Source: Thermoanaerobaculaceae bacterium
GTDB lineage: Bacteria > Acidobacteriota > Thermoanaerobaculia > Multivoradales > UBA5704
NCBI GenBank assembly: GCA_963778565.1
Contig: CAVZUZ010000012.1
Location: 432,578-496,577 of the forward strand
Direction of reading: 5' to 3'
Length of the DNA: 64,000 nucleotides
Shown one piece after another: positions 4,978-23,613 of the stretch. A model generated the notes under the pieces. That model saw nothing but the letters and a program-made list of their open reading frames with translations. It was not told where the DNA came from and did no database searches. The first letter of the stretch is position 1. Each line of letters starts with the position of its first letter. The position numbers and the translations under genes were made by a program.

Positions 4978-7264
4978 TCATAGAGCGGTCGAGGCTGGGG
5001 CCAGCCGGACCAGGAGTCTGTGATAGCGCACGTCGCTGCGGAGCGCGAGGAGCTCCGGATCGCGCTTCACTTCGGCCAGGGGATAGCCGTTGTGAAGCGC
5101 CCTTTCGAGCACCGCGAGCGCCGGCTCGCGGCGACCGCAGACCTCGTGGGCGACCACGATCCGGAACTGGGCGTCGGCGTCCTTCTGCGCCAGCCGTTCG
5201 ATCTCCCCGCTCGCGGCGAGGGCGGGTCCGCAGTCTCCGCGCTTGGCCAGGTAGACCCCGCGCCGGCTCAGGAGGGTGGCATCCTGCGGCGCGGCGCGAA
5301 GCGGGTCTGCCAGAAGCTGGAGGGCCCGCGAGTAGGCCTCGCGAGCCCGGGTGCCGCCCTCGGGCAGAAAACGGCAGGCATCCCCGAGATTGCCCCAGAG
5401 GAGATAGTTGTTGGCCCCTCCCGGCAGCTCGAGCGCCTGCTCATAGGCCTGGGCCGCCTGCGGATAGAGCCCCTGGGCGAAGTAGAGGGTCCCCAGGGCG
5501 GAGTAGAGCGACGGCTGGGGCTGGATCTCCAGCGCCTTTTGAAACTGGGCGGCAGCCTGGGCCAGGTTGCCCTGTAGATAATAGGCCGATCCCAGGTTGC
5601 GGTAGCCCAGAGGGCCGTCGGGGGCCAGGCGGATGCTCCTCTGGAAGGCCGCGATGGCTGGAGCGAGGCGGCCGGTGCGCAGGTAGAGCGCGCCCAAGGC
5701 GTCGTAGAACAGGCGGTCGGGGCGCAGGACGACCGCACGCTGAAGCGCGGCTTCCGCCAGGTCGAGCTGGGTCCGGGCCTCGTACACGGCGCCGAGGGCG
5801 TACTGAGCATCGGCGTTCCCCGGTTCGAGCTGGATCGCCTTTTCGATCTCCCGGGACGCCTCGTCCAGCCGCCCGAGCGAGGTGTAGACCAAGCCCAGAC
5901 TCACCCGGGCCGATGCCAGGTAGCCGTTGAGCGCAACGGCACGCTCGGCCAGCGGCAGGGCCTGGTCCAGCCACATCCGGTCCTTGCTCTGACTCTGGAA
6001 CTTGAGTTGGCAGGCGCGCGCCAAGGCGGCGTGGGCCGCCGCATGATCAGGGTCACGGCCGATGATCTGCCGGAAGTCCGCGATCGCCTCGTCGAGGTTG
6101 CCCGGTTTGTCGTAGCGGCGGAGCGCCGCCGAGCCCTGCTCGTAGAGCTCATACGTGCTGGCGGTGCGCTGCGGTGCGGCAAGGCGCCAGCCCTGCCAGC
6201 CGAGGGCCAGGACGAGGAGGAGCCCGCCGGCGAGGAAGACGGCTGGCAGGAAGGCGCGACGGCCGCGCGGGAGAGTGGCGCTGGACGACTCCGACACCCG
6301 CGACCCGCGGCCGTCCCGCGACCCACGTGGCCTCGTCCGGCGGCTGCCCGGGTGCGCGATCGGTGTGATCGGATAGAACGGCGGCGGCTCCTGCGGGCGG
6401 TCGCAGCGCCGGCAGACGGGCGGCGGCCTCTTCGAGACGGGCGACAACCTCGCCGGCATCCCGGGGGCGGGCGTTCGGCTCCTTCTCGAGCAGCCGCTCG
6501 ACCAGCGCGGAGACCTCGGCGGGAATCTCGGCGCGCAGCCGCCGCACCGGCAACGGGCGGTAGTTGCACACACGGGCCAGGGTGGCGGCGGCGGAGGAGG
6601 CGCGGAACGGCGCCTCTCCGGTGAGCATCTCGTAGAGCAGCGAGCCCAGCGAAAAGAGGTCCGAGCGGGGATCGAGCGGCAGCCCCAGGGCCTGCTCGGG
6701 CGACATCGCGTAGCTCGTGCCCATCACCGTGCCCGTCTGCGAGAGCGTCGTCTCGTGCCCCGGCCCCCCCTCAAGGGACAGCGCGCGGGCGATGCCGAAG
6801 TCGAGGACCTTGGCGTGACCCGCCTCGGTGATCATCACGTTGCCCGCCTTGAGGTCGCGATGCAGGATGCCCTGCGCATGGGCGGCGGCGAGCCCTCCGG
6901 CGATCTCGCAGCCCCACTTGAGGGCGCTCCGGATGTCGAGCGGACCAGCGGAGAGGAGCTGGCGCAGCGTCTTTCCCTCCACCAGCTCCATGACGAGCCA
7001 GTCGCCTTCCGGCGATTCCACCAGATCGTAGATCTGGACCACGGCAGGATGGGTGAGCCGGGCCCCGGCCTCGGCCTCGCGGCGAAAGCGCTCGCGCGCT
7101 CCCGGCTGGTCCAGGATCTGCGGCAGGACGTGCTTGACCGCCACCGGCCGCTTCAGCCGTCCGTCCCAGGCGCGCCAGACTTCTCCCATACCGCCGGCGG
7201 CGAGCCGCTCGACGAGCCGGTAGGGCCCCAACGCTTCGGCCGGCGGGTTTTCCTCCCAGCTCAA
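4978..7264 (-). CDS. Ser/Thr protein kinase with a TM segment and a C-terminal TPR array. The frame is broken once, near 6300.
   Basis: Hanks kinase motifs are present: GGMGEVWRA, VAVK, HRDLKAGNVM, DFGIAR and SPEQ. The second frame (ORF 4978..6573) carries a TM segment (FLPAVFLAGGLLLVLALGW) and at least 8 TPR-like repeats. The start codon is TTG at 7264. Confidence 0.85.
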
Positions 7265-16539: not shown

Positions 16540-16929
16540 ATGAGAGCCAAAGCCCATCTCGACCTGAGCCGCCGCGAGCGGCAGATCATGGAGGCGATCT
16601 ACCGTCTGGGGAGCGCCACCGTGTCGGAGGTGATGGTGGAGCTCCCCGAGCCGCCGAGCTATTCGGCCGTGCGGGCGATGCTCGGCAAGCTGGAGGCCAA
16701 AGGCTACCTCAGGCACCGGCAGGAAGGCCCGAAGTACCTCTATCTCGCCACCGTACCCCGCAACGAGGCGCGCGAGTCGGCGCTGGAACGGTTGGTGCGG
16801 ACCTTCTTCGACGGCTCGGCCGAAAAGGCGGTGACGGCCCTGCTCGACAGAGCGGCCGCCGAGATGAGCGACGAGGAGCTGGACCGTCTCTCGGTATGGA
16901 TTCAGGAAGCCAAGAAAGGGGAAAAGTGA
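16540..16929 (+). CDS. BlaI/MecI/CopY-family transcriptional repressor
   Basis: LSRRERQIMEAIYRLGSATVSEVMVELPEPPSYSAVRAMLGKLEAKGYLRHRQEGPKYLY is a winged-helix Penicillinase_R signature. GAAGGA SD lies before the ATG at 16540. The stop overlaps the next start (TGATG). Confidence 0.9.
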   Translation: MRAKAHLDLSRRERQIMEAIYRLGSATVSEVMVELPEPPSYSAVRAMLGKLEAKGYLRHRQEGPKYLYLATVPRNEARESALERLVRTFFDGSAEKAVTALLDRAAAEMSDEELDRLSVWIQEAKKGEK

Positions 16930-19433
16930 TGCTCGACCTTTGGTTCGCAGCGCTCCTCGACTCCTCGCTGAAGGGGCTCGCCCTCTGTCTCGTCGCGGCA
17001 ACGGCGGCCCTCCTGCTGCGGCGGGCTTCCGCCGCCACCCGGCACCTCGTCTGGCGGCTCGCCTTTGCCGGACTGCTGGCTCTGCCGGTGTTCGCGGCGG
17101 TGCTGCCGGAGTGGCGGGTTGCGGTTCCGGTCTCCTCCATGGACCCAGCGTCGTCCGTGCCGCTGAGCCCTCACCTCCCCGGCCCTCCTCTCCCAGAGGG
17201 AGAGGAGGGAGTAGGACAGGAAAGACTCTCCTCGGTTTCCCCTCTCTCCCCCGGGGAGAGAGGGGCCAGGGGAGTGAGAGGCGGCGGCGCGAACGCCGCT
17301 GAAATGATCGAAAACGGCGGCATCGGAGCCAGCCTGCCCTCCTGGCCGGCCATCGTCTTCGGCATCTGGCTCGCGGGTGTCCTCGCGGTCCTTTCCGTCC
17401 TGGCCATCGCCTTTCTTCGCTTGCGGTGGCGACGCCGGATTGAGCGCCCGATCCTGGACGACGCCTGGGCCACTCTCCTCGACCGTCTGCGCGCAGACCT
17501 GGACATCCGCCGGCCGATCGAGCTGGTGACGGGCGGCGAAAGTGTCATGCCGATGACCTGGGGCTGGCGGCGGCCCGTCGTGATGCTGCCGGCCGGGGCC
17601 GAGGCGTGGCCCGAGCCGCGGCGCCGGGCCGTGCTCCTCCACGAGCTCGCCCACATCGCTCGCAGAGACTATCCGGCGCAGCTTGCGGCCGAGGTGGTCC
17701 GCGCCCTCTACTGGTTCAACCCCCTGGTCTGGATGGCCGCGAAGAAGCTGCGCCTGGAGAGCGAGCACGCGTGCGACGATCGGGTGCTCGCAGGGGGCGC
17801 CCGGGCCACCGACTACGCCGGCGACCTGCTGGAGATCGCCAGGTCGTTCCGCGCTCTGCGGGCCGCCGCTCCGGCCGGGCTCGCCATGGCCCGGCCCTCG
17901 CAATTGGCCGGCCGTCTCCTCGCCGTGCTCGACGGCGGGCGCAACCGGCGTGGGGTCTCGCGCCGCCTCGCTCTTCCCGCCTGGCTCGCGGCCGCCTGCG
18001 TGGTGCTCCCGCTGGCCGCGTTGGCTCCCGCCGAGGAGCCGGCGTTGGCGGCAAGCTTCCCGCCGTTGGGATCCATGACCATGGCCTCCGCGGTTTCGCC
18101 GCAAGAGGAGAACGAAGCGGCGGGCTCGGCCGGGACGACCGCGATGGATTCATCCTGGGACGGACCGGTGACGCCTCCAACGCCGCCAACACCGCCGACT
18201 CCTCCGACACCACCCATCCCTCCCACGCCGCCAACACCGCGGACGTCCCCAGCGCCTCCGGCGCCTCCCGCTCCGCCGGTACCACCGGTAGCCCGCCTGG
18301 CGCCCCCTCCAGCGCCGCCGGCCCCTCCGGCACCTCCGGCTCCACCTGCGCCGCCGGCACCGCCCGGAAACCGGTCGATCCAAATCAATTCGTACAACGA
18401 TACCGTGACCTTCGACTGGTCGCGGGACGGCCACCGGATCAAGATCCGCACGGAAGGCAAGTTCAAGCTCACCGATGACTGGACCGGCATCGCCAGCCTC
18501 TCGCGCGGCGCCGAGCTGCGGTTCGAGGAGGAAAACGGCACCGAGCGGCGCCTCGACGTCGAGCCCGGCGGCGACGGCCGTCCCGTCTATACCTGGAAGG
18601 TCGACGGCGAGAAACGCGCTTTCGATGCCGCAGGGCAGAAGTGGCTCCAGGGCATGCTGCTGCACTTCGTTCGCGGCACCGGCTATGACGCGGAGCGGCG
18701 GGTCGCCTGGTTCCTGCAGCGCCAGGGGCCGGATGGAGTCCTCGCCGAGATCTCCCAGATCCCGGGCGACTACACGAAACGGATCTATTTCCAGAAGCTC
18801 TTCGCCCACTCCGGCCTGGGAGCGGACGCCGTCGGCCGCGCCCTGGCGCAGGCGGGCCGGGAGATCCGGTCGGACTACGATCTCCGGGAGGCGCTCCTCG
18901 CCGCCGCCGGATCCCAGGAGCTCGCCGGTGCCACCGTGCTCGCCTACACCGAAGCGACGCGGGCCATCGAGTCCGACTACGACCACCGGCAGGCCCTGAC
19001 CGGACTCCTGGAGAAGGGCCGCCTCGATGCGGCCGGTCTCGCCGCGCTGCTGCGGTCGGCCCGCCAGATCGGCTCCGACTACGACCTCGCCACCCTGCTC
19101 GTGGCGGTTGCCGAGAAGAGCGCGCTCAAGGACCCCACCGTTCAGAGCGCCTATGCCGAGACCGTCAAGGAGGTCGGTTCCGACTACGATTCCCGCCGCG
19201 CCCTCTCGGCCGCCGTGCAGCGAGGGGACTTATCCCAAGATGCCTTGCTGGCGGTGCTCCGCTCGGCGCAGAACATCGGGTCCAGCTACGACCGCGCGTC
19301 GCTGCTGGTGGAGATCGCGGGCAAGTACTCCCTCTCCGGCGCGGCGCGCGATGCGTACCTCGCCGCCGCCGGATCCATCAGCTCCAGCCATGACCGCCAG
19401 CGGGCCGAGGCTGCGTTGGGACGGGGGAAGTAG
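16929..19433 (+). CDS. BlaR1-like M56 peptidase-family signal transducer with a Pro-rich linker and a C-terminal SDYD helical-repeat domain
   Basis: The zinc site is HELAHIARRD, with ALYWFNPLVWMA and EHACDD. Multiple TM segments are present. PPTPPTPP.../PPAPPAPP runs are followed by six units of about 35 aa carrying (S/G)SDYD. The gene is translationally coupled to the repressor. Confidence 0.85.
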   Translation: MLDLWFAALLDSSLKGLALCLVAATAALLLRRASAATRHLVWRLAFAGLLALPVFAAVLPEWRVAVPVSSMDPASSVPLSPHLPGPPLPEGEEGVGQERLSSVSPLSPGERGARGVRGGGANAAEMIENGGIGASLPSWPAIVFGIWLAGVLAVLSVLAIAFLRLRWRRRIERPILDDAWATLLDRLRADLDIRRPIELVTGGESVMPMTWGWRRPVVMLPAGAEAWPEPRRRAVLLHELAHIARRDYPAQLAAEVVRALYWFNPLVWMAAKKLRLESEHACDDRVLAGGARATDYAGDLLEIARSFRALRAAAPAGLAMARPSQLAGRLLAVLDGGRNRRGVSRRLALPAWLAAACVVLPLAALAPAEEPALAASFPPLGSMTMASAVSPQEENEAAGSAGTTAMDSSWDGPVTPPTPPTPPTPPTPPIPPTPPTPRTSPAPPAPPAPPVPPVARLAPPPAPPAPPAPPAPPAPPAPPGNRSIQINSYNDTVTFDWSRDGHRIKIRTEGKFKLTDDWTGIASLSRGAELRFEEENGTERRLDVEPGGDGRPVYTWKVDGEKRAFDAAGQKWLQGMLLHFVRGTGYDAERRVAWFLQRQGPDGVLAEISQIPGDYTKRIYFQKLFAHSGLGADAVGRALAQAGREIRSDYDLREALLAAAGSQELAGATVLAYTEATRAIESDYDHRQALTGLLEKGRLDAAGLAALLRSARQIGSDYDLATLLVAVAEKSALKDPTVQSAYAETVKEVGSDYDSRRALSAAVQRGDLSQDALLAVLRSAQNIGSSYDRASLLVEIAGKYSLSGAARDAYLAAAGSISSSHDRQRAEAALGRGK
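17167..17282. repeat. Type B palindromic repeat copy lying inside the BlaR1-like CDS with the frame still open
   Basis: GCCCTCACCTCCCCGGCCCTCCTCTCCCAGAGGGAGAGGAGGGAG...CCCCTCTCTCCCCCGGGGAGAGAGGGGCCAGGGGAGTGAGAGGC. It translates as ..SPHLPGPPLPEGEEGVGQERLSSVSPLSPGERGARGVRGG.. in the loop between TM2 and TM3. Confidence 0.8.
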
Positions 19434-19450
19434 GGGCTCCGAGACGCCAG

Positions 19451-19855
19451 ATCAAGCTTGAGGCGATATACGGAAGCTTGAACCGCCTCGCTGCAGGCTC
19501 GAGGCGTGACGATTCAAGCTCGAGCTGCCACGATTCAAGCTTGATCCGGCTCCGGCAAGCTTGCGACGCCAGAACCCAAGCTTGAGGCGGCGCGGTTCAA
19601 GCTTGATTCTCCCGCCGCAAGCTTGCATCGTGCGGGATCAAGCTTGAGCTCGCCGGCTCAATCTCGACCCGAGGCGATTCAGGCTTGCCGGGTCCCGCCT
19701 CAAAGCTTCCCGGTGATGGTCCAAGCTCTGGCCGTGGCGATGCAAGCTTCCCCCGAGACGCCGCAAGCTTGAAACGGCGCCGGCAAGCTCGAGGTGAGGC
19801 AGCTCGAGCTTGGAACGCTATGCCTCAAGGTTGCCGCGAGCGAGATCAAGCATGG
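19451..19855. repeat. Phased array of 20 palindromic CAAGCTTG cores at 20-22 bp spacing with variable spacers
   Basis: AAGCTT-type hexamers lie at 19454, 19474, 19495, 19516, 19537, 19557, 19578, 19599, 19619, 19640, 19660, 19681, 19703, 19723, 19744, 19765, 19785, 19806, 19827 and 19848. Eleven are perfect AAGCTT and nine have 1-2 mismatches. Several extend to the 10-bp palindrome TCAAGCTTGA. Confidence 0.95.
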
Positions 19856-19898
19856 GCGCACCTCCAAGCCGATCGAGTCTGCATGCTATGCTCTCCTC

Positions 19899-20027
19899 AT
19901 GACGCTGGACGAATGGCTCGACGGTCTGAGCCGCCTGATATCCGTCTCGCTTTCCGACCCGGCAGCCGAGGCCGTTCGCGAGGCTCGCGAGGCTGACGAC
20001 GCCGCGCTGGTCGAGGCTCTCAAATGA
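19899..20027 (+). CDS. Possible tiny ORF (42 aa) upstream of, and overlapping, the RHH gene
   Basis: MTLDEWLDGLSRLISVSLSDPAAEAVREAREADDAALVEALK. Its stop overlaps the next ATG (ATGA). No clear SD was seen. The longer GTG-initiated version (19794) runs through the repeat array. Confidence 0.3.
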   Translation: MTLDEWLDGLSRLISVSLSDPAAEAVREAREADDAALVEALK

Positions 20028-20179
20028 AGATCACCATTGCCCTGCCGGATGACATCGCCGAGAGAGTTTGCCGCCTCCCGGATCGCGACGAGTTCGTAGC
20101 TCGTGCGGTGGAGGCGGCCTTTGCTCGGGAACGGTCGCTTCCCCCACGACGAAAGCTGATGCGCTATCTCCTCGATTAG
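20024..20179 (+). CDS. Small ribbon-helix-helix (CopG/antitoxin-like) DNA-binding protein, 51 aa (below the ORF-track cutoff)
   Basis: MKITIALPDDIAERVCRLPDRDEFVARAVEAAFARE is a typical RHH N-terminal strand + helix pattern. GAGG lies 7 nt upstream of the ATG at 20024. The stop is TAG at 20177..20179. Confidence 0.55.
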   Translation: MKITIALPDDIAERVCRLPDRDEFVARAVEAAFARERSLPPRRKLMRYLLD

Positions 20180-20191
20180 CCGTCGCTGTAT

Positions 20192-22344
20192 CTACCTCGC
20201 CAGCAAACTCTTCCCATCCAGGTTCGTCGTCGGCTTGACCCCGTACAGATCGAGGATCGTCGGCATCACGTCGCCCATGTAGGCGCCGGCCGGGGCGTTC
20301 AGCTTGAGGCTGCTGAAGAGGATGCCCTGGACGAGCGGCGGATAGACGGAGCAGTGGTCGCCGCTCCAGATCTCGGTGTTGGGCTCGACGACCGTCTTGG
20401 CGATGCCGCCCAGGCTGTCCTGCCAGCCGACGCGGTAGCCCTCGCTGTTGGAGGGGATGAGGTCCGGGATCAGCACCGGATCGTAGACGCCCTCGTAGGC
20501 CTCGTCGCGGGTGAAGACGTGCGCCACCGGCTGCTCGCCCGTCTCTTCGTCAACGAAGGACTCGAGCCCCGCCTTGATCGCGGCCACCACCTGCTCGTAC
20601 TCCGCGCCCGGCTTGACGATCCCCTTCTCCTCGCGGCCCTGGAGATTGATGTAGATCTGCCCCAGGCCGAGGGCGTAGGCCCGGGTCTTCGACCAGTCGA
20701 CGTTGGTGAAGAAGTCGCCCTGGTCGAAGAGGTCTTCGAGGTTCTTCCGCGCGGCGTCCTCGCCGGTCAGGCTCATGAAGCCGTTCTTCGCCAGCCAGGT
20801 GTTGTAGTTCATGCTGCGGCGGAAGGAGGCGAAGCCGTGGTCGGAGACGATCATGAGGGCCGCCTCCGGCCGCTTGCGCATCACCTCGCCGACGATGCGG
20901 TCCATCTCCTGGTAGGACTGGAGGATCGAGCCGCCCCACTTCGCCGCCCCCTCCGCGGTGTAGAGCGGGTGCTTGGGATCGAAGAAGCGGAACATCATGT
21001 GCTGCACCCGGTCGGTGAACTCGAAGTAGTGCACCAGCACGTCCCAGTCGTCCTGGGCAAGCAGGCCGTCGAGGATCTCCTTATCCTTGTCCACCGTCAT
21101 CTTCACGTCGTCGAGGAAGGTCTGCTCGTCCGACCGTGCCGTTGGTGATCGACCAGGTGTCGATCATCCAGCCCAGGGTCTTGAACAGGCCGTGCTCGTG
21201 GGTCAGCTCGCCGACGAAGCCGGCCGGCGTGGTGATGTCGAAGCCCGGCGGCAGGTTCTCCGGATCGAACTGGATCGGCGCCGAGGTAGAGCCGCACCTC
21301 GGGATCGATGGACAGCAGCTTGAACCGGCCGATGCCCTTGAGCTTGATGAGCGAATTGAAGGGGAAGGTGAAGCGCACCCAGTCGCTCCACTCGCCCCGG
21401 CTTCAAGCTGAGGTCGTTACCGGAGACCTGGATGCGGACGTTCGAGCGGTCCTCGGCGACGGTGAGGACCATGGGGATCTTGATGTACTCGAGCCCCTCC
21501 TCTCCCGGGAACAGCTCGTTCGGCGGCCCCTTGATCTCGGTCTCGATGGTGCCGCGGTTGTCCACCAGCTCGACGACTTCGACCTAGAAGTCGCCGCCTC
21601 CCTTGGGGGTGAAGAACAGCTCCGAGGTGAAGTAGAACGGCTTGCCGATGCGCCCCGATAGGTCCGGCACGCCGAGACCCGAGAGCAGCTCGCCGTGCTC
21701 GAAACCCTTGGGCGGAAAGGTGACCGGGATGCGCATCACCCGCACCCGCTTGCCCGCCTGTCCGAGCAGCTTCCAGAAGGTGTCGCCCTGCTGGTTGTTG
21801 ATGGCGATCGGCCGGGACTTGGGCAGCAGGTTGTCCGCAGCGAGCCCCGAGCCGACGCCTGCGGCGATTCCCAGGACCAGCGCGACGGCCGCGGCCACCG
21901 TCCACCGCAGCCGGAACAGCTTGAGGATCAGGAGGAAGAGGAGCGCCACGACAGCGGCGGCGATCAGCCCCGTCATCCAGCCGTTGTTCTCGCCGAAGAG
22001 GAAGACCTCCTTGCCCTCTTCCGCCGCCGCGAAAGCCGGCTTGTAAGTCCGCGGGGTTGCGCTTCAGGAAGTCGAAGATGCCGTGCCGCCCCGGATTCAG
22101 GCCGGTCGCGAAGGTGGACCAGGAGACCGGGCGTCTGCGACGGGATCGTCGGCCGCAGCGGCGAAAAGGTCCCTTGAGCGCGCAGCTTGGCGAGGTTCGG
22201 CAGCTTGCCCTCGTCCATCCACTGCTCGGTGAGCTTGGCGTCGGCGCCGTCGAAGCCGAGGATGATCAGCTTCTGCGCGGGCTGCTGCGCGGCCAGGGGC
22301 ACGGCCAGGATGAGAAGGGCGAGCGAGCAGATCGCGTATTTCAT
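20192..22344 (-). pseudogene. Type I phosphodiesterase / nucleotide pyrophosphatase (alkaline-phosphatase superfamily), heavily disrupted
   Basis: Homology is readable through at least 6 segments: signal peptide + LIILGFDGAD..PSQTP | VSWSTFATGLNPGRHGIFDF | TM + ..VPDLSGRIGKPFYF | EVVELVDN.. | ..FTFPFNSLIKLKG.. | PIQFDPENLPPGFDI.. | ..IVSDHGF... Frame shifts lie near 22135, 22052, 21395, 21285 and 21128. There is an in-frame TAG at 21584..21586. Confidence 0.8.
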
Positions 22345-22425: not shown

Positions 22426-23613
22426 TCACATCCCGTTGTGGACGGTCACTGAGGTGAACCCGTCCGTCTCCACCACCAAGTCCGGATTTCCGTTCTGGGC
22501 CAGCATTCGCCTCACGAGACGAATACCGCGGCCGAGTTGTTCGACGTAGCCCAGCTCCACAAGCCATCTTGTGATGGTGGGATTGCGATAATCCGCGTGG
22601 CGACCGAACTCCCCTTCGCTGGCCTGGCCAAAAGGTCCACCAGGGTTTGAGAATGCAATGCGGTTGTTGAACCACTCGACCCTTCCGGGTGCGTGAGTGC
22701 CCTCGTACAGGCGATGTTGGACCAGGTTGCGGGCCAGCTCCCGAAGAGCCTCCAGGGGATACTCGGGCCGATAGAGAGTCCGTATACCCTCGGCTGAGGC
22801 CGGGATACTGACGAGATGGGCGTTGAGCTGCGCCCAGAGCGCTTCGAGTTGTTGAGGTATCGTTCCGTCAACGCTCTTGCGGACGGCGACGGCGGCGTCC
22901 ACCTCGGTGCCCCGGTAGCGTACGAACTCGACCACGGCCCCGGGGAAGAAAGCTTGCGGGTTTTCGCCGAATAGCAGCAGCGCTGCAGCGTTAGGAGTCC
23001 AGGTTCCTTCGACCGTGCGCCCCAAGTCCTTACGGGACAACCAGGCCTCGATTCCGGGGAAACTTTCGGGATCGTGATTGGCCTCCTTGGCGGCCTCATA
23101 CATCGGCCGCAATACAGTCTGTCGCAGGTCCTCTAGGGTGGCTCCATGAACAAGGCGGTAGTCGAAGGGCTGGCGGTTCTCCGGCCGCCTCTCGCGAAGC
23201 CGAAGAAGATCCGATTCACGAGCCCGCTCGGTGACCGTGCCTCTGCGGATCCATGCCGTGCCATCCACAGCCACGACGGGGGGGACGGGATAGGGATCAA
23301 TCCTTACCACGAGCACGGTCTTGCCGTCTTGTTCCACCGGCTCCATGCTGTATGTGGGAGTCGGCAACAGTCTGATCGATGAGAGGCGGCTCGCCAGCTT
23401 CTGCTGTTCATCATCGAGATCCCCCTGAAGACCGACGATCCTCCCGTCGTCGGCAAGTCCCAGGACGACAAAACCTGGTCTGCGGCTGTCTCCCAGGTCA
23501 TTGGCCAAGGCACAGACGGCGTGGAGAATACCGTTCACGTCTGCCGTGGATTGTTTCCACTCGACGCGCTCGCTCTCTCCTGCCAGAACTTCAGCGCTCT
23601 CTTTTAGTGTCAT
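22426..23613 (-). CDS. AlbA_2 (Schlafen-like) + HATPase_c_4 domain protein (COG2865-type putative regulator)
   Basis: ESERVEWKQS...ILHAVCALANDLGD...GFVVLGLADDGRIVG is AlbA_2/divergent-AAA-like. The C-terminal ..NLVQHRLYEG...YRNPTITRWLVELGYVEQLGRGIRLV is HATPase_c_4/HTH-like. Confidence 0.75.
   Translation of the reverse strand: MTLKESAEVLAGESERVEWKQSTADVNGILHAVCALANDLGDSRRPGFVVLGLADDGRIVGLQGDLDDEQQKLASRLSSIRLLPTPTYSMEPVEQDGKTVLVVRIDPYPVPPVVAVDGTAWIRRGTVTERARESDLLRLRERRPENRQPFDYRLVHGATLEDLRQTVLRPMYEAAKEANHDPESFPGIEAWLSRKDLGRTVEGTWTPNAAALLLFGENPQAFFPGAVVEFVRYRGTEVDAAVAVRKSVDGTIPQQLEALWAQLNAHLVSIPASAEGIRTLYRPEYPLEALRELARNLVQHRLYEGTHAPGRVEWFNNRIAFSNPGGPFGQASEGEFGRHADYRNPTITRWLVELGYVEQLGRGIRLVRRMLAQNGNPDLVVETDGFTSVTVHNGM

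Follow-up and report, generated by a model that had tools for sequence, protein, structure and literature searches.

This study was concerned with a phased array of short palindromes in a 64,000-nucleotide stretch of DNA from a Thermoanaerobaculaceae bacterium (Acidobacteriota; assembly GCA_963778565.1, contig CAVZUZ010000012.1), the whole of which is referred to as the window. The array lies at positions 19453 to 19854, has no assigned strand and consists of 20 units, each made up of an 8-bp palindromic core, CAAGCTTG, and a spacer of 12-14 nt. It begins 20 bp past the stop codon of a BlaR1-like sensor gene and is followed by two very small open reading frames (ORFs). The 20 sites have at most two mismatches to CAAGCTTG and start at 19453, 19473, 19494, 19515, 19536, 19556, 19577, 19598, 19618, 19639, 19659, 19680, 19702, 19722, 19743, 19764, 19784, 19805, 19826 and 19847. 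The steps between them are, in order, 20, 21, 21, 21, 20, 21, 21, 20, 21, 20, 21, 22, 20, 21, 21, 20, 21, 21 and 21 bp. The single 22-bp step is to be treated with caution, since consensus errors are possible given the six single-base insertions in the neighbouring phosphodiesterase gene. In the window the core is weakly extended to TTCAAGCTTGAA, and the majority of the 13-nt spacers fit NNNCGNNNCGNNN; among the 12 spacers of this length, CG is found at positions 4-5 in 10 and at positions 9-10 in 7.

Perfect copies of CAAGCTTG occur eight times inside the array and once in the other 63.6 kb of the window, and the perfect hexamer AAGCTT occurs 11 times inside the array, compared with six times in the remainder of the 64-kb window (67% G+C). 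Matches with at most one mismatch to CAAGCTTG number 38 window-wide; 16 of these fall within the array's 400 bp, and the 22 outside it correspond to the shuffle expectation of 20 +/- 4. No ORF confined to the array exceeds 58 amino acids (aa), and the longest ORFs that overlap it (103 aa, 19685-19996; 77 aa, 19794-20027) start inside the array and exit at its right end. Since steps that switch between 20 and 21 bp keep to no reading frame, the array cannot encode a periodic protein. Tandem Repeats Finder (TRF) picks up just 3.6 units, because the spacers are strongly diverged. The G+C content is steady at 0.63 across the region, with no A+T-rich segment around the array. Orthologous arrays were found in independent assemblies (L083 and L104), and the window array is therefore not an assembly artefact. 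An earlier note on this DNA, prepared from the letters alone, had listed the 20 palindromes and their centre-to-centre distances, had called the 11 AAGCTT copies more than chance would give in G+C-rich DNA, had described the array as non-coding and non-random and had asked for a check of the assembly. The distances were reproduced exactly, step for step, and the other statements are borne out by the counts, the ORFs and the assemblies just described.

Related arrays were sought in a genome scan that used one genome per species and a pattern of three perfect cores 20-21 bp apart. The scan returned 73 loci, obtained as 8-kb segments, which makes the number of arrays per genome a lower bound. These loci split into two classes, A and B. 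Class A repeats keep strictly to 21 bp, have homogeneous spacers and occur in Bacteroidota, Bacillota, cyanobacteria and other phyla. Examples of this class (L002, L006, L008 and L069) lie within ORFs reaching well past the array, which suggests that these ORF-embedded repeats encode heptads. The scan pattern catches any 21-bp repeat with CAAGCTTG, and class A was set aside as by-catch instead of being counted among the relatives of the window array. A single Bacillota metagenome-assembled genome (MAG), OH_HBB_250, has 11 loci of 21-bp repeats with a CAAGCTTG or CAAGCTCG core (L002, L004, L007, L015, L025, L026, L041, L049, L054, L056 and L072), and Prevotella sp. CAG:891 (L064) has 25 near-perfect 21-bp copies with one or the other of these cores. 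Class B resembles the window array. Its spacers have a pairwise identity of 34-45%, its 20- and 21-bp steps tend to alternate, and its arrays comprise 11-26 units. The genome scan contained 11 class B arrays, all of them in high-G+C Acidobacteriota: nine in Thermoanaerobaculia, one in Pyrinomonadaceae and one in an unclassified Acidobacteriota MAG. On six contigs of one MAG, SMAG_U11742, there are six class B arrays. When metagenomes were scanned for the 20+21 pattern, 17 more loci were obtained, of which approximately 10 are class B. The source DNA of class B is about 58-70% G+C, and the named genomes are those of Acidobacteriota.

When 21 arrays were pooled, 219 steps were of 21 bp, 150 were of 20 bp and 6 were of 22 bp (n = 375; mean 20.6 bp). 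The pooled core logo is palindromic, with the information maximal at the central GC and falling outward symmetrically through TT/AA, and C and G are found at approximately 8 bp from the dyad. In the same pooled arrays the 12-nt spacers have the form AA-N8-TT and the 13-nt spacers the form NNNCGNNNCGNNN, with G in 75% and C in 70% of cases at the mirrored positions. What repeats is a composite module of 41 bp whose dyad axes run through the centres of both cores and spacers: two cores 20 bp apart over an AA-N8-TT spacer are joined to the next pair by a NNNCGNNNCGNNN spacer. A hidden Markov model of the 41-bp unit, built from 100 units of 19 other arrays, matched the window only inside 19440-19854 (best E = 1.5e-6) and matched both strands equally. 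The window array is a member of this Acidobacteriota family of CAAGCTTG 41-bp dyad arrays and has its core, its 20/21-bp steps, both of its spacer classes and its non-coding, intergenic position. Literature searches returned no description of such arrays, and the family is apparently undescribed so far. The PARCEL elements (PMC2996958) were considered and ruled out, being coding repeats of 25 residues (75 bp).

Evidence for constraint comes from L005 and L101, two loci that are syntenic (RecT, array, DUF1203), have flanks 76-83% identical and have an array that begins just past the RecT stop codon. Their spacers are 33% identical, which is the random level, with no collinear register or diagonal, while the match of their cores to the consensus is 81% and 91%. 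Next to these arrays, a short inverted repeat near the promoter can still be aligned. Cores, step length and symmetric CG positions have been kept beside randomised spacers, and neutral decay of a duplicated unit therefore does not account for the arrays. The earlier note had stressed that core and phase persist where spacers do not; the same was found in at least 20 further arrays as well as in this pair. An 8-mer constant across orders, a tight step and dyad-symmetric spacer positions are in keeping with a symmetric protein that recognises double-stranded DNA. Between the array and the start of DUF1203 there is an inverted repeat resembling ATTCCnGCGCAGGAAT in both L005 (reverse complement 5823-5860) and L101 (2520-2560), and this repeat is a candidate operator of the DUF1203 gene.

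The window's own locus was compared with contigs of relatives, which are approximately 80-92% identical in the flanking genes where measured and keep the gene order blaI, blaR1-like gene, toxin-antitoxin module(s), phosphodiesterase and SpoIIE. In L074-L082, L084 and L103, about 20-80 bp separate the blaR1-like stop codon from the first antitoxin gene and contain no chain of cores; L085 is also without a core chain, and its upstream context is different. The array is present in two relatives. In L083 it has 25-26 units and is followed directly by an intact 89-aa antitoxin gene, and the L104 contig starts within the array. Window positions 19574-19829 align to L083 335-589 with 80% identity, so that these arrays are orthologous; between matched units, 11-13 of the 13 spacer positions are the same, and a block of approximately eight units is duplicated in L083 relative to the window. 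Gain, loss and resizing of the array at this locus follow the manner of a minisatellite. The earlier note had called the array centromere/operator-like and had itself named absence or length variation of the array in close relatives as evidence to the contrary; such absence and variation are what was found, and by this measure the operator/centromere reading fails. The case illustrates the turnover of arrays and toxin-antitoxin modules within a single intergenic hotspot. In the array-less L074 (5948) and L075 (~2035), a solo core-like copy (CAAGCTTC or CAGGCTTC) is located between the blaR1-like stop codon and the antitoxin promoter; it could be the relic of a collapsed array or the seed of array growth.

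The genes beside the arrays are heterogeneous across the family, and any factor involved therefore acts in trans. Immediate neighbours include TrmFO/GidA, RecT, DUF1203, beta-lactamase-fold proteins, a PIN gene, DUF420 with COX2, an MFS transporter, an OPT transporter, OmpA, a halogenase and others; to these, ORF reading only adds genes that resemble a Phd-like antitoxin, Uma2-like genes and a uracil-DNA glycosylase. No flanks shared among arrays were found by blastn, and tblastx of the flanks gave composition-driven noise only. An all-versus-all blastp of ORFs within 2.5 kb of 24 arrays returned only the L005/L101 synteny and scattered paralogues. The arrays occupy co-directional, convergent and divergent intergenic regions, and several fill the entire gap between two genes. 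Of 22 arrays, 8 have an end no more than 35 bp from a stop codon, and arrays often start 5-35 bp past one. No transposase, RAYT (REP-associated tyrosine transposase) or integrase was seen in the array flanks examined, and PLSDB (72,556 plasmids), 50,697 phage records and 2.9 million viral contigs contained no match to the array. Solo or paired cores upstream of regulator genes, which were examined to nominate an autoregulated binder, gave nothing usable. Two array pairs in one genome each (L028/L059 and L035/L057) have a whole 21-bp unit in common, spacer included, in reverse-complement orientation, and do not share flanks. This sharing of sequence implies that arrays are seeded at new loci by a flank-free route.

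The conserved core and phase beside diverged spacers are best accounted for by a protein that binds along a single helix face. Our preferred reading, to which we give an even chance, is that the arrays are phased binding tracks on double-stranded DNA for a predicted dimeric protein encoded elsewhere. The window array would then be one of a family of lineage-restricted elements that lie between genes in Thermoanaerobaculia and in some other Acidobacteriota, each of them presenting about 11-26 dyad-symmetric recognition sites centred on CAAGCTTG and spaced approximately two helical turns apart. A dimeric DNA-binding protein encoded elsewhere would read each palindrome, and because the sites are on the same helix face, bound dimers would assemble cooperatively into a nucleoprotein tract of 0.3-0.5 kb, which could be a filament or a wrap. 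The tract may act as a barrier to transcription or supercoiling, or as a local organising site. A role as barrier or insulator is suggested because the arrays are intergenic and close to stop codons. The data show the architecture of the arrays, the existence of the family, the selective keeping of core and phase and the lack of dependence on adjacent genes, whereas binding by a protein, the nature of that protein and any effect of the tract are inferred. A fuller version of this reading, which is offered tentatively, is that CAAGCTTG arrays are undescribed chromosomal nucleoprotein elements in which about ten 41-bp dyad modules recruit a dimeric or tetrameric protein, that they serve the host as insulators, roadblocks or organising sites and that they spread by a flank-free route. 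Phased protein-binding repeat arrays are a known kind of element, to which this family would belong.

Several observations weigh against the binding-track reading. The array is dispensable at the window's locus, as at least nine related contigs are without it. Duplication and deletion of blocks alter the arrays, as in ordinary minisatellites. Between the window and L083 the cores are 83% identical and the spacers 78%, so that cores are only marginally better kept, which points to weak or relaxed per-site selection at this locus. The arrays that share a unit at two loci of one genome indicate dispersal, which is possibly selfish rather than functional. In addition, the conservation of the core across lineages could come from recognition by a mobility or repair enzyme and not by a structural or regulatory binder.

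The genes at the window's locus are described here from left to right. The array is preceded on the forward strand by a gene (16896-19433) for a BlaR1-like membrane sensor of 845 aa with an M56 peptidase domain (Pfam PF05569, E = 4.9e-31), and the blaI/blaR1-like pair is syntenic in relatives. Complete orthologues of the sensor have 641-776 aa; the window protein has a Pro-rich PTPP/PAPP tract (~18170-18360) and approximately six C-terminal repeats on an (I/V)xSDYD motif. The gap between the array and the first mini-ORF (19855-19898, forward strand) was compared with the sequences of relatives. It matches the promoter and start of their FitA-like antitoxin gene at 14 of 18 positions (TATGCTCTCCTCATG compared with TATGCTGCCCTCATG), and we infer from this match that it resembles that promoter/start region. 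In the conserved promoters of array-less relatives, CATGCA-N3-TGCATG and TAGGCT-N4-AGCCTA are the inverted repeats present, and CAAGCTTG pairs are absent. In L074 (5975-5995), L075, L103 and L104, the region upstream of the 89-aa antitoxin gene contains a conserved TG-n-TAGGCT extended -10-like element that overlaps TAGGCT-N4-AGCCTA, and this site is likely to be the native promoter/operator of that antitoxin, unrelated to CAAGCTTG. Growth of the array from the FitA operator was also considered (CAGAT followed by TGCATG, compared with CAGAT followed by CAAGCTTG at the left edge of the array), and the resemblance is too weak to claim.

The two mini-ORFs that the earlier note had reported downstream of the array are present as described (19794/19899-20027 and 20024-20179). 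The first, an ORF of 42 aa at 19899-20027 on the forward strand, is a FitA-like antitoxin remnant that retains the start codon and residues 45-84 of an 87-aa protein. It is 78% identical over 40 aa (BLASTP) to residues 45-84 of the FitA-like protein of L078, and window positions 19901-20021 match L078 5445-5565 at the nucleotide level. The Pfam FitA-like_RHH match of the L078 protein covers residues 5-39, whereas the window ORF is without residues 2-44, the ribbon-helix-helix (RHH) domain included, and its PIN partner gene is deleted. The second ORF, of 51 aa at 20024-20179 on the forward strand, is the remnant of an 89-aa antitoxin whose first 37 residues are intact and are followed by a frameshift. 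Its product has 21 homologues, all of 88-90 aa and with these first 37 residues in common. Compared with L083, the window's gene has an internal deletion of 134 bp that shifts the frame, and the new tail of the ORF runs into the first codons of the lost PIN toxin gene. In relatives the 89-aa gene overlaps a PIN-domain gene (153-156 aa) by one base, and it is therefore the antitoxin of a VapBC-like module.

The earlier note had ascribed an RHH signature to the 51-aa ORF. The AlphaFold 2 model of a full-length 89-aa homologue starts with an extended N-terminus and helices at residues 9-16 and 21-36, followed by a linker that is disordered and by two more helices at the C-terminus (predicted local distance difference test score 73), and is consistent with an RHH antitoxin with a predicted strand-helix-helix N-terminus. 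A PDB profile search gave a weak match to the RHH antitoxin MazE6 (E = 0.8), which is the sole sequence support for this fold. However, Pfam and NCBIfam scans of both mini-ORFs gave no match, and Foldseek and hhalign searches with the 89-aa antitoxin did not confirm the RHH fold. The RHH fold is a candidate assignment for this family. The view of the two mini-ORFs as an RHH cassette partnered with the array is not supported. Both are decayed type II antitoxin genes that have lost their PIN toxins, and the "tiny RHH gene cassette" is what is left of two toxin-antitoxin modules. The array does not require these decaying remnants, and an attractive annotation is corrected to toxin-antitoxin debris. 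Beyond them, a convergent gene for a type I phosphodiesterase/nucleotide pyrophosphatase (20192-22344, reverse strand) is broken into several ORFs, two of which match Pfam PF01663. It has approximately six single-base insertions relative to an intact 718-aa orthologue in L074, and the split gene reflects either a pseudogene or consensus errors of the assembly.

The main rival to the binding-track reading is a selfish or neutral minisatellite, which we consider unlikely. Here a function-less, interspersed 21/41-bp unit would have been seeded intergenically and amplified by slippage or unequal exchange, its core being kept by a mobility, nicking or repair enzyme or by "palindrome correction" during template switching. 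Such an origin would agree with the variable presence of the array at one locus among relatives about 10% diverged, with the difference between 20 units in the window and 25-26 in L083, with the solo core-like copies in L074 and L075, as expected of a collapsed array, with cores that diverge nearly as fast as spacers between the window and L083, and with the pairs L028/L059 and L035/L057, in which units and not flanks are shared. The arrays are also often found amid accessory genes (toxin-antitoxin modules, RecT and Uma2-like genes, the last named by sequence reading only). However, neutral decay cannot give approximately 88% per-position conservation of the core beside spacers at 36% pairwise identity, and in L005 and L101 the cores and phase outlasted the spacers. 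The dyad-symmetric signals in both spacer classes, together with 369 of 375 steps at 20 or 21 bp, point to structural constraint, and neither transposase nor RAYT nor integrase genes accompany the arrays. These constraints, which extend across the family, argue against a purely neutral minisatellite. An element acting at the level of RNA is quite improbable in our judgement. The array would be transcribed in a 3' untranslated or intercistronic region, and its mutually complementary cores would fold into a very stable structure and so stabilise the upstream mRNA or attenuate read-through, in the manner of repetitive extragenic palindromic (REP) sequences and bacterial interspersed mosaic elements (BIMEs). 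The proximity of 8 of 22 arrays to a stop codon and the several arrays that fill co-directional gaps make transcription probable, and the predicted RNA fold of the array (-221 kcal/mol) is much more stable than shuffles (z = -7.9). The opposite strand folds equally well (z = -6.6), though, because any phased palindrome array must. Adjacent cores do not covary (6.85 compatible pairs per core pair, compared with 6.85 +/- 0.02 in shuffles), and changes oriented by the flanking genes and pooled over arrays comprise 54 wobble-tolerated A-to-G and 46 wobble-breaking T-to-C changes, so that G-U-compatible changes on the sense strand are not in excess. The lack of covariation and of strand asymmetry favours recognition of double-stranded DNA over RNA hairpins. 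Rfam contains no family for the array, the only hits being plant miRNA models below threshold (20-26 bits compared with gathering scores of 100-168), and promoter and terminator scans gave no finding, with no terminator-like site among their results. In addition, hairpins need neither one 8-mer across orders nor a 20-21-bp step nor dyad-symmetric CG, and arrays are also found between divergent genes (L038 and L098).

The same comparisons bear on two further proposals. One is that an operator or centromere-like site has been amplified and is coated by RHH proteins from the genes next to it (the FitA-like or the 89-aa antitoxin), perhaps with PIN toxin dimers bridging it at a distance of two helical turns as in FitAB; we regard this as very unlikely, and the comparative data already largely refute it. 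The array does end directly upstream of the first antitoxin gene in the window, L083 and L104, the information peak at the dyad centre is what a beta-ribbon in one major groove is expected to give, and the L018 array is near a Pfam-confirmed PIN gene with an upstream ORF that is Phd-like by sequence reading only. In the window, however, the FitA-like ORF no longer has an RHH domain, the 89-aa antitoxin is truncated at residue 37 and neither toxin is present, while at least nine relatives have intact modules, no array and promoters with other inverted repeats. The proposed link between the array and an RHH gene also fails elsewhere in the family. The neighbours of more than 20 other arrays are unrelated and include no RHH gene and no conserved gene, and tblastn of both mini-ORFs against all 73 genome-scan array loci gave nothing significant. 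The earlier note had observed that no ParA/ParM-type motor, replication initiator or toxin gene is adjacent to the array, and none was found among the neighbours of the array in the window. This result counts against the parC/sopC-type centromere that the note had also entertained: no ParA, ParM or TubZ gene is nearby, no par gene is among the window neighbours or the immediate neighbours scanned at 11 other arrays, and there are several arrays per genome. The suggested plasmid or iteron context was likewise not recovered, as there is no par gene, rep gene or plasmid setting and searches of the plasmid, phage and viral collections came back empty. It is extremely unlikely that the array is a cis-site left behind by an integrated mobile element, such as an iteron origin or a packaging or partition site, or else an assembly artefact. 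The region is decaying or foreign, as seen in its toxin-antitoxin remnants, the frameshifts of its phosphodiesterase gene and the insertion of an AlbA_2 gene whose G+C content is lower, and lambda-type origins have dyad-symmetric iterons approximately two helical turns apart. Against such a relic, the surroundings contain neither an initiator, integrase or par gene nor an A+T-rich unwinding region, the 2.9 million viral contigs, 50,697 phage records and 72,556 plasmids contain no match, and 20 sites are far above known iteron sets. An artefact is contradicted by the orthologous arrays of independent assemblies and by similar arrays in MEGAHIT, JGI and Logan contigs.

Compared with known systems, the geometry of the arrays seems most like that of tandem centromeres (sopC) and of RHH-coated repeat sets (pSK41), and their genomic behaviour most like that of REP/BIME and of mycobacterial interspersed repetitive units (MIRUs); they fail the defining tests of all four. 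The sopC site of the F plasmid consists of 12 units of 43 bp, each with a palindromic site; the units are near-identical, spacers included, and lie beside sopAB, with one sopC per replicon. Like sopC and other ParB-type centromeres, the present arrays repeat in tandem a unit that spans about four helical turns (41 bp, compared with 43 bp in sopC) and has one palindromic site, they are approximately 0.4-0.5 kb long, and they would nucleate a large nucleoprotein complex. Unlike sopC, they have diverged spacers and an unrelated core, occur at as many as six chromosomal loci in a genome, are not accompanied by par genes nearby and have no plasmid match. The ParR protein of pSK41 coats 20-bp repeats and MetJ reads an 8-bp palindrome, and the RHH-coated sets known so far comprise 2-10 (up to ~18) repeats, which lie directly upstream of the operon they belong to. 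The arrays resemble such sites (parC of R1 and pSK41, the omega sites of pSM19035, parH of TP228 and the metboxes of MetJ) in their short phased repeats suited to symmetric dimers and in their information peak at the dyad centre, and they differ in that the adjacent RHH genes are unrelated decayed antitoxins and that arrays occur without any RHH gene. FitAB-type RHH-PIN hetero-octamers bind two short sites approximately 22 bp apart, with RHH dimers bridged by PIN dimers. FitAB and VapBC operators share with the array short symmetric sites about two helical turns apart, and remnants of such modules flank it. However, these operators have one site pair per promoter, the promoters of relatives bear other inverted repeats, and modules occur without arrays and arrays without modules.

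REP sequences are imperfect palindromes of 20-40 nt that fold alone; their orientation alternates, their copies number tens to hundreds, and RAYT genes are linked to them. Like REP/BIME, the present arrays are chromosomal, extragenic, multi-copy arrays of palindromes that are often just past stop codons, vary among strains and are predicted to bind host proteins. BIMEs are reported to bind gyrase and integration host factor (PMC3733652). Unlike REP/BIME, the arrays have a perfect 8-bp palindrome (weakly extended to 12 bp), a fixed step of approximately 20.5 bp and few copies per genome; they have no GTAG/CGTC tag, all of their units are dyad-symmetric, and no RAYT/Y1 transposase was seen in the examined flanks. 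The units of MIRUs are 40-100 bp long and homogeneous over their whole length. The arrays are similar to MIRUs and other variable-number tandem repeats in being tandem, dispersed between genes or cistrons and variable in copy number, with one unit at several loci, and are dissimilar in that conservation is limited to the core, the step length and a small number of symmetric positions in the spacers. The repeats of CRISPR arrays are 23-47 bp long, with spacers of similar size (PMC1933234). Both CRISPR and the present arrays have partly palindromic conserved repeats and non-conserved spacers of fixed length. In contrast to CRISPR, the core here is 8 bp, the spacers are 12-13 nt, and these spacers are inherited and duplicated in blocks rather than acquired. 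No cas genes, and no rep gene for an iteron-type origin, were found among the window neighbours.

Arrays of phased binding sites have so far been known mainly as plasmid centromeres and engineered lacO/tetO arrays. If a host protein coats the tracks of the binding-track reading, they would be natural chromosomal arrays of phased sites without a linked partner gene, in a large and poorly studied soil phylum. The arrays would then provide a sequence signature for finding the binder by phylogenetic profiling. Which protein binds, and whether the tract is a transcription block, a supercoil trap or a chromosome organiser, would become a tractable question.

Two other features of the window were recorded. 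A Schlafen/AlbA_2 and HATPase_c_4 gene (22426-23613, reverse strand; G+C ~0.60) is located between the phosphodiesterase and SpoIIE genes. It is missing at this place in L074-L076 and L084 and is therefore a lineage-specific insertion. A second 21-bp tandem repeat is found at 2326-2531 (9.8 copies, unit CTGCTACGGCGCTGTAGACCC) within an ORF at 2273-2602 on the reverse strand. This ORF encodes 109 aa, with a lipoprotein-like signal (MRTLLIIIIALALLSC) followed by (YSAVAGV)n, and the repeat is a coding heptad repeat unrelated to the CAAGCTTG array.

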